Shown: one piece after another, positions 43,229-45,888 of the stretch
Layout: each line of letters begins with the position of its first letter
Numbering within the stretch: the first letter of the stretch is position 1
Sequence record: NC_054922.1
DNA from: Escherichia phage vB_EcoM_KAW1E185
Length of the DNA: 64,000 bases
Reading direction: 5' to 3' (one strand)
Position numbers and translations under genes: made by a program
Notes under the pieces: generated by a model
The model's input: only the letters and a program-made list of their open reading frames with translations
Databases searched by the model: none
Told to the model about the DNA's origin: nothing

Positions 43229-43445
43229 ATTGTTTTTCCGTTAAAACAGTAATATCGTAGTAACAGTCAGAAGAAGTTTTAACTGTGGAAATTTTATTAT
43301 CAAAATACTCACGAGTCATTTTATGAGTATAGTATTTTTTACCATAAATGGTAATAGGCTGTTCTGGTCCTGGAACTTCTAACTCGCTTGGGTTAGGAAG
43401 TGTAAAAAGAACAACGCCAGAAGTATCTTTAAATCGTAAAATCAT
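43182..43445 (-). CDS. hypothetical protein (nrdA.2-like)
   Basis: 87 aa ORF. Confidence 0.5.
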
Positions 43446-44302
43446 ATTGCCATTTTCCCTTTAATTGCTGGATGCGATTCATAATTTTCAAGGATAAAAT
43501 CTTTCGGTTTCATGTATTCAGTTAACCAGTAAAGCTGTGTTTCGGTGTCACAATTTCCAAACTCTATAGGCCAATCAATTTTAAGTTCACATAGTTCTTT
43601 AGGCTCACGACGTAAAATTTCTTTACATTGCTCAGTATGATTCATATAGATGTGAGTATTACCACCAGAAAATATCAAATCTCCTGGGATAAGATTACAC
43701 ATCTTAGCCACAATATGCGTCAAGGCAGCGTACGAGGCAATGTTGAATGGCAAGCCCAAGAAAACATCTACACTTCTTTGGTACCATTGTAAATCAAGAT
43801 AACCATTACGCACATTAAACTGATAGAACATATGACAGGGCGGTAATGCCATTTGATTGATTTCAGCTGGATTCCATGCTGAAACGATTTGACGTCGATC
43901 AGTTGGTAATTTTTTAATACGATCAATAGTTTCAACTAATTGATCCACACCACCGAAATCACGCCATTGTTTACCGTATATAGGACCAAGTTCACCACTA
44001 TGATATCCTAGGTCTTTAGCCTGGTTTTCATAGTTATCGTCCCAAATAGTTTTACCTTGAATAAGACTACCATGAGTGCGAAGACGTAAATCATTAACAT
44101 TGGTAGAACCGGAAATAAACCATAGAAGCTCAGCAATGCATGCATTCCAGGCGAGCTTCTTAGTCGTTACTGCAGGAAAACCTTTAGTTAAATCCCAGCG
44201 TAATTTAGTACCGAACAAAGCAATTGTTCCTGTGCCTGTTCGGTCATCGGTTTCATAACCATTTTCAAAAATGTCTTTAATTAAATCTTGGTATTGTTTC
44301 AT
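43442..44302 (-). CDS. td: thymidylate synthase (uninterrupted, no intron)
   Basis: 286 aa single ORF, T4 TS length; catalytic ALPPCH motif. Confidence 0.95.
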
Positions 44303-44346
44303 TTAGTACCTTATATAAATTATAATACATTTTATGAAGCTAATAA

Positions 44347-44694
44347 TTAATACGGTTTAGCATCAAATTTTCTCTCAATTTCAGGCGTGAAATATAATTC
44401 TTTACCGCGTTTGGAAAAGCGACCAATAATATGATAATTATTCTCATCAAACGTGATATTACCAATATCCATAGCTTTCAACCAAATATCGATATTTCTA
44501 TCCAGCTTTATGTCAAAATTCCAATACGGAGAACTATTACCGAAAATACTGCAAGCGGATTCAGTGAAACAACTGCTATAAATCTTGTCTTTAGGAACTA
44601 CTAATTGATAGACACCTTTAATAAACTGAGGACCCTGCCACTTTGGCTGTTTCGCGTCTTTTTCTAATAGAATAGGGTAATAATTAAAATTCAT
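44347..44694 (-). CDS. hypothetical protein between frd and td
   Basis: 115 aa from ATG 44694; no recognised family. Confidence 0.55.
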   Translation of the reverse strand: MNFNYYPILLEKDAKQPKWQGPQFIKGVYQLVVPKDKIYSSCFTESACSIFGNSSPYWNFDIKLDRNIDIWLKAMDIGNITFDENNYHIIGRFSKRGKELYFTPEIERKFDAKPY

Positions 44695-44714
44695 ATTTTC
44701 CGCCACGCGTTATT

Positions 44715-45544
<830 letters not shown>

Positions 45545-45555
45545 ATTATCTCCTA

Positions 45556-45888
45556 TTAAAAAGGATCAGGAACATATCCACTAGCTTTAATCATTTTAAC
45601 TAATGTTACCATTCCTTTGTTAACTGCTTGTGAGATTTCATCAAAAACTTCATCATTAAAAAGTTCTAGCACACCCTTCTGAACTTTTAATTTACAGCCA
45701 ACAATTTCGTCATCGCCTATAGTAAATTCATTACCGCCAATTCCACCGAAAAACTTAATTACCCCAGTTAACTGTCTTCCACGAGAATATGGGTCATGTG
45801 ATAAAGTAATATGAGTCACCCCAGGTACAGTTTTAAATTGACAGCGAATGTTTACTTGAGAAATTCCAGTTACATGAATGTCAGACAT
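45556..45888 (-). CDS. hypothetical protein (frd.2-like)
   Basis: 110 aa ORF. Confidence 0.55.
   Translation of the reverse strand: MSDIHVTGISQVNIRCQFKTVPGVTHITLSHDPYSRGRQLTGVIKFFGGIGGNEFTIGDDEIVGCKLKVQKGVLELFNDEVFDEISQAVNKGMVTLVKMIKASGYVPDPF

Follow-up and report, generated by a model that had tools for sequence, protein, structure and literature searches.

In bacteriophage T4 (KJ477684) and in RB69, the genes for dihydrofolate reductase (frd) and thymidylate synthase (td) meet directly, with the frd stop TGA and the td start ATG overlapping as ATGA (...GTATATAAATGAAACAATACC...). The td genes of T4 and T6 carry a group I intron, with I-TevI in the case of T4, and the td of T2 has no intron. 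For T6, the partial record AY262134.2 names a gene td.1 (hypothetical protein ABI48938.1) between frd and td. The T2 equivalent was left unannotated in the old record AY310907.2, and across AY310907.2 and PV648363.1 it is unannotated or 'hypothetical'. Wilson & Edgell (2009) draw on the T6 record without mention of td.1, and no paper discussing td.1 was found in the literature. In the BASEL phages WilhelmHis, FriedrichMiescher, and FriedrichZschokke, as well as in Klebsiella phage ValerieMcCarty04, the product is labelled 'putative homing endonuclease'. The BASEL paper relied on comparative annotation and cites no domain in support of this label, and the homing-endonuclease paper on KP15/KP27 deals with other genes.

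The DNA analyzed in this study (the window) comprises 64,000 nt of NC_054922.1 from Escherichia phage vB_EcoM_KAW1E185, a T2-like Tequatrovirus. An earlier note on this sequence had described a 115-aa ORF, starting MNFNYYPILLEKDAKQPKWQGPQF, wedged between frd and td, and it was found on the minus strand exactly so. The frame given in the ORF list (44347–44706) opens at a GTG and contains an internal ATG at 44694, from which a 115-aa protein is read. Since the homologues begin at this ATG, the CDS was assigned as listed in Table 1. The statement in the earlier note that frd and td abut in T4 was correct, as both T4 and RB69 read ...TATAAATGAAACAATACC with the frd TGA overlapping the td ATG, and no homologue occupies this position in T4. 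The ORF is accordingly an extra gene relative to T4, but not an unusual one among T-even phages, given that T2 and T6 encode the identical protein.

We conclude, with a probability above 0.9, that this minus-strand CDS is the td.1 of T6, unchanged in T2, and that purifying selection acts strongly on it as a genuine coding accessory gene. The family to which it belongs, PHROG 1928, is small and restricted to enterobacterial T4-like phages (Tevenvirinae). Its members are always found immediately after frd and before td, in many cases as a tandem pair of paralogues, whereas T4 and RB69 lack the gene. The ORF itself is already known, having been deposited hundreds of times as "hypothetical protein" besides being named in the T6 record.

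Table 1. Coordinates of td.1, its neighbours and junction elements in the window, and of related features at comparison loci (labels beginning with L).
Feature	Position	Strand	Remarks
td.1 CDS	44347..44694	(-)	115 aa + stop (TAA, 44349-44347); PHROG 1928 member
frd (dihydrofolate reductase)	44715..45299	(-)	5' neighbour and probable co-transcript; Pfam DHFR_1, E 1.7e-18; stop TGA 44717-44715
td (thymidylate synthase), intronless	43442..44302	(-)	3' neighbour; Pfam Thymidylat_synt, E 7e-96 over 2-286
frd-td.1 spacer, 20 nt	44695..44714	(-)	weak Shine-Dalgarno-like GGCGG 44704-44700, 5 nt before ATG
td.1-td spacer, 44 nt	44303..44346	(-)	MotA-box-like TTAGCTTCA 44343-44335; TATAAT 44324-44319; td Shine-Dalgarno AAGG 44312-44309
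Left direct-repeat copy TAAATGAAATAA	44710..44721	(-)	holds frd stop and vestigial td start (ATG AAA TAA)
Right direct-repeat copy TAAATGAAACAA	44294..44305	(-)	holds functional td start ATG 44302-44300
81-aa ORF upstream of frd	45299-45544		
110-aa DUF7247 ORF	45556-45888	(-)	E 1e-44
68-aa gene, L015 (Shigella phage ESh26)	2405-2611	(-)	
68-aa gene, L016	2405-2611	(-)	
68-aa gene, L005	2173-2379		
68-aa gene, L007	2148-2354		
68-aa gene, L013	3670-3879		
Erwinia phage Cronus gp170, L006	1059-1493		144-aa PHROG 1928 paralogue
Enterobacter phage Entb_45 frd, L005	1002-1516		annotated as two pseudogene fragments

Along the minus strand of the window, the gene order is frd, td.1, td (286 aa, uninterrupted), nrdA.2, nrdA.1, and nrdA. 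In the mechanical ORF list, frd extends to an ATG at 45326 (203 aa). The homologues of T2 and KMB23 start at 45299 (MIELVF..., 194 aa), which, judged by this homology, is probably the true start. Immediately upstream lies an 81-aa ORF without a Pfam match, the stop of which adjoins or overlaps this start. Both the window and KMB23 carry the DUF7247 ORF beyond it, which is missing from the corresponding region of T2, T4, and WilhelmHis. It represents a further presence/absence accessory gene of this block and has relatives in 485 phage records.

The region around td.1 is 95–98% identical to many Tequatrovirus genomes. By tblastn, the ORF was recovered from 361 phage records at ≥90% amino acid identity and from 264 at ≥99%, and the exact protein is present on 341 public contigs, always labelled "hypothetical protein". 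Between the window and either T2 or T6 the protein is 100% identical, and in both phages the gene is likewise placed between frd and td, with matching spacers on either side. T6 differs in that its td.1 lies beside an intron-containing td, whereas the td of the window is intronless, like that of T2. With td.1 in roughly 55–70% of Tequatrovirus records, T4 and its empty junction represent the minority state.

Conservation and coding signal were both strong. All 13 of the 13 nucleotide differences between the td.1 genes of the window and T2 are synonymous (dN 0, dS 0.24), and dN/dS values of 0.05–0.13 were obtained against two metagenomic relatives at 63–66% identity. The weak ribosome binding site and a td spacer with promoter-like elements would fit a chance reading frame or a decaying remnant, in which case the real feature would be non-coding, either an RNA element or a promoter-bearing td spacer. 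This explanation, to which we assign a negligible probability, is ruled out by the substitution pattern. It is also at odds with protein conservation down to 26% identity between genera, with invariant residues, and with the confident predicted fold described below. RNA-level explanations were likewise rejected, as Rfam gave no match near threshold and neither spacer folded better than shuffled sequence (z +1.67 for the 20-nt frd-td.1 spacer).

Although no family could be assigned by eye in the earlier note, an assignment is possible. The protein matches PHROG 1928, labelled unknown function, with an E-value of 8.4e-36 (residues 4–111 against profile positions 2–125 of 126), and our own profile of 39 representatives scored the window ORF at E 7.7e-32. 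PHROG 1928 was matched by all 39/39 family representatives, including the long paralogues and gp170 of phage Cronus. The motif set that defines the family (Q-x-x-W, G-x-Y, G-N, and G-R-F-x-K-x-G...F-x-P) is present in the window protein as Q16, W19, G27, Y29, G79-N80, G91-R-F-S-K-R-G97, and F102-T-P104. There is neither a Pfam or NCBIfam model for PHROG 1928 nor a solved structure or described function. When 1.84 billion cluster representatives were searched exhaustively with a profile, only 42 members emerged (clusters at 50% identity), all of 37–139 aa, including three fragments of 37–49 aa.

Family members are also recognized by their location directly after frd and before td in a Tevenvirinae genome, which is where td.1 of the window lies. 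At least seven further genera of Tevenvirinae have relatives at 26–47% identity immediately behind frd, and tandem paralogues are frequent among them. Such genes occur in Jiaodavirus, Kanagawavirus, Roskildevirus, Winklervirus, and Gelderlandvirus, and furthermore in an unclassified Klebsiella phage, phage Moon, and two metagenomic T4-like contigs. The td.1 ATG of the relatives in other genera usually overlaps the frd stop. A long subfamily is distinguished by the insertion PTIxEYxxNP after the conserved Trp. Its members form the tandem paralogue right after td.1, and in Serratia 92A1, Providencia, Morganella, and Proteus phages the long paralogue directly follows frd. No second family copy was found in the window, where td.1 is single. 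Between genera, the td.1 family has diverged to 27–33% identity, compared to 73–80% for Td.

Two genomes showed peculiarities at this locus. The PHROG 1928 paralogue gp170 of Erwinia phage Cronus is located upstream of the td.1-like gene of that phage. In Enterobacter phage Entb_45, the td.1 homologue, the long paralogue, td, and the 68-aa gene described below are all intact next to the fragmented frd. Either the sequence of the latter contains an error, or frd was genuinely lost and td.1 retained.

The td.1 segment is flanked by a 12-nt direct repeat, the copies of which are spaced by 416 bp and identical at 11/12 positions, nine of them in a perfect run (Table 1). Collapsing both copies yields the exact T4/RB69 junction, and the 416-bp segment corresponds to what T4 lacks. 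Overlapping the frd stop, the left copy represents a vestigial td start. Because of this vestigial start, and because other genera have plain frd/td.1 overlaps without a scar, the sequences favour insertion of a td.1 cassette into a T4-like junction, which we consider the more probable direction of change. The T2-type arrangement in Tequatrovirus would have arisen when the 416-bp cassette entered an overlapping frd/td junction, with the left join falling 9–12 nt inside td and leaving the vestigial td start behind frd. The repeat created in this way would also permit precise loss of the cassette.

A single scar is all that indicates which way the indel went, and deletion between the 9-nt perfect repeats gives the same T4 sequence. 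It is conceivable, if rather unlikely, that td.1 was ancestral in Tequatrovirus and that the abutting frd and td of T4 were produced by such a precise deletion between the repeats TAAATGAAA. The occurrence of the family at the same locus in many Tevenvirinae genera implies that its presence there is ancient, td.1 is the majority allele, and the repeat-to-repeat deletion reproduces the T4 sequence exactly. However, a td start matching at 11 of 12 nt within the frd-td.1 spacer is explained by insertion and not by an ancestral arrangement, and RB69, which belongs to another genus, shares the collapsed junction of T4.

Judging from the sequences compared, the junction appears to be a cassette site at which three or more alleles segregate, namely empty, td.1, and an unrelated 68-aa gene. 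The last of these (MSNKLKVKDVP..., PHROG 9550) was found in ESh26, PM108, pSs-1, fPS-65, and others, as well as in Dhakavirus JS98. It is highly conserved, with about 135 records at ≥90% identity, and gave no Pfam match. Like td.1, it occupies the frd-td junction, is conserved across genera, and is missing from T4. Unlike td.1, to which it is unrelated in sequence, it shares nucleotides with the frd stop at one end and with the td start at the other, and has no spacer or duplication scar. In Kanagawavirus, in the unclassified Klebsiella phage Biddle_MM4, and in contig L013, frd is followed by td.1, the long paralogue, the 68-aa gene, and td, in this order.

The Frd of Shigella phage ESh26 is 100% identical to that of the window, yet its junction holds the 68-aa allele; the cassettes therefore shuffle by recombination at gene borders. 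Between the window and T2, Td.1 is 100% identical, although Frd and Td are each only 86% identical. In this comparison td is unusually diverged (86% at the amino acid level, dS 1.17), although the adjacent td.1 protein is identical. This suggests mosaic recombination, possibly tied to intron homing and co-conversion.

The signals for expression pointed out in the earlier note were recovered. The ribosome binding site of td.1 is indeed weak, consisting of GGCGG followed by AAAAT and the ATG, and the element upstream of td, described as TATAAT-like, is a perfect TATAAT inside the 44-nt spacer. This spacer is identical in T6, and that of T2 differs by one extra T. No promoter was called in it by a sigma-70 scan, the TATAAT being passed over because there is no −35 match. 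A search for terminator-like sites between frd, td.1, and td found none; a single weak match on the opposite strand inside td was within chance expectation. We propose that td.1 is transcribed together with frd and td and that translation from its weak site 20 nt past the frd stop is either low or dependent on reinitiation or coupling. From the spacer that arrived with the cassette, td would obtain a good Shine-Dalgarno sequence and a putative TATAAT/MotA-box-like promoter, and the sequence of this spacer suggests that the element at 44343–44319 may be active as such.

Over the 39 representatives, only W19, G91, K95, and G97 are invariant and Q16, G27, Y29, F93, and F102 nearly invariant. A conserved Asp, Glu, His, Asn, or Cys is missing from the alignment, and in the HG(I/V)Y motif the His is replaced by Lys in the window protein. 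The median pI of the family is 8.7. Structure prediction with AlphaFold2, using the 39-sequence alignment, resulted in a confident model (pLDDT 90.5, pTM 0.83) with the element order b(6-12), b(27-34), b(62-64), helix(68-76), b(80-82), b(86-96), and b(99-104). The conserved W19 is positioned in the b1-b2 loop, and the conserved R92 and K95 are found in the b4-b5 hairpin. Together with the median pI, these residues give no more than indirect hints of the ligand binding (ssDNA, RNA, or oligosaccharide) for which OB-fold domains use the b2-b3/L12/L45 face. In its order of strands and helix, the model resembles the OB fold, which is defined by a closed barrel of five beta-strands in which a helix separates strand 3 from strand 4; the nucleic-acid-binding domains used for comparison were HIN, Teb1, Cdc13, S1, and SSB/PriB. 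As far as the model can tell, the fold is either new or a very divergent OB-like barrel.

Sequence searches gave little further guidance. Scans of the window protein against Pfam, NCBIfam, and PADLOC were negative, as were NCBIfam and PADLOC scans of two distant homologues, and Pfam produced only scattered single matches at E >0.01 over all 39 representatives. Nothing below E 0.2 was found in the PDB by single-sequence or profile search. Uncharacterised proteins of 157–161 aa from the Aeromonas phages Ah1 and phiAS5 were weak structural matches in BFVD (Foldseek E 0.01–0.03), which hints that the predicted fold may extend to more distant T4-like phages. Td.1 is almost certainly not an enzyme.

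These data bear directly on the annotated function. As a free-standing homing endonuclease gene, td.1 would spread through cleavage, close to the frd/td junction, of genomes that lack it. Such an element would be expected to appear as an ORF intervening between two conserved genes, polymorphic in presence and with recombination breakpoints at its borders, and homing elements are abundant nearby (I-TevI in the td of T4, segG, mobE). Nevertheless, we regard this assignment as highly improbable and rejected it. No nuclease domain of the GIY-YIG, HNH, LAGLIDADG, His-Cys box, PD-(D/E)xK, or EDxHD type was recognizable in Td.1, and a match to any nuclease family was absent from Pfam, NCBIfam, and PDB sequences. 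The invariant columns of the 39-sequence alignment (W, G, K, and G) include none of the catalytic or metal-binding residues expected (Asp, Glu, His, Asn, Cys; Tyr, Arg, and Glu for GIY-YIG). With 115 aa, the protein has about half the size of Seg and Mob proteins (213 aa for MobE). As regards mobility, presence/absence and mosaic flanks were observed, but the gene is found once per genome and always at the same locus in many genera. The label in the BASEL phages has no domain evidence to set against this.

The best overall explanation, for which we see about an even chance, is an accessory, non-catalytic binding protein that is made together with Frd and Td and originated as a cassette. On this explanation, Td.1 would be a compact, mildly basic, beta-rich domain of 13 kDa that probably acts by stoichiometric binding, with the conserved Q-x-x-W loop and the GRFxKxG hairpin contacting its partner. 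This partner is most likely to be sought in the phage machinery for DNA precursors and DNA metabolism, that is, Frd/Td, the dNTP-synthetase complex, or nucleic acid. A dispensable, modulatory role of the protein in that machinery is our tentative proposal. It is based on the strict synteny and coupling with frd and td over many genera. Synteny, however, is weaker evidence of functional linkage here than in bacteria, because phage gene order is inherited and maintained by homologous recombination. Furthermore, T4 and RB69 manage without the gene despite having Frd, Td, and the dNTP-synthetase complex.

A host-interaction gene would account equally well for the polymorphism within a genus, the unrelated gene that can take the place of td.1, the tandem paralogues, and the rapid divergence from genus to genus. 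Td.1 could thus be an early or middle counter-defence or host-takeover protein that neutralises a host factor and is useful only on some hosts, with the junction merely tolerating cassettes. This is somewhat doubtful, yet the two explanations are nearly tied. Three alleles are shuffled at one site within a genus independently of their flanks, T4 and RB69 dispense with the gene, tandem paralogues have diverged quickly between genera, and enzymatic motifs are missing. Small ORFs nearby (DUF7247, DUF5417, FRD2) are similarly polymorphic. A role in counter-defence accords less well with the fixed position and the stop/start overlaps with frd and td over many genera, or with a protein that is near-invariant within Tequatrovirus. 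In addition, no similarity to a characterised anti-defence protein or defence component was found in searches that were run without a dedicated anti-defence library.

A more far-reaching and speculative proposal covers both possibilities. PHROG 1928, comprising Td.1 and the tandem long paralogue, might be a previously unseen fold specific to Tevenvirinae that partners with Frd/Td or nucleic acid at the interface of replication and dNTP synthetase, tuning the supply of DNA precursors on particular hosts. Alternatively, it might counteract a defence by which the host senses this pathway or starves it.

The finding that td.1 is a real gene absent from T4 is accurate but ordinary. Our analysis adds the rejection of a 'putative homing endonuclease' label that is now propagating in GenBank, and a description of the frd/td junction as a putative three-allele cassette site with a 12-nt scar, probably of insertion, in the T2-type allele. 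It also adds the characterization of the family as narrow, strictly syntenic, strongly constrained, and structurally unmatched. Classical T4 genetics could never have seen td.1, because T4 does not have the gene; that the model phage happens to lack it would explain why Td.1 was never studied. T4 is thereby a natural knockout of a tightly constrained, uncharacterised family, and td.1 is a reasonable candidate for a simple knock-out/knock-in experiment.

The free-standing homing endonuclease genes seg and mob of T-even phages share some genomic behaviour with td.1. Similar to td.1, they are small, lie between conserved genes, are present or absent in close relatives, and have mosaic borders. 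In contrast to these genes, td.1 encodes neither a nuclease domain nor catalytic residues, has half their size, and keeps one fixed locus across genera.
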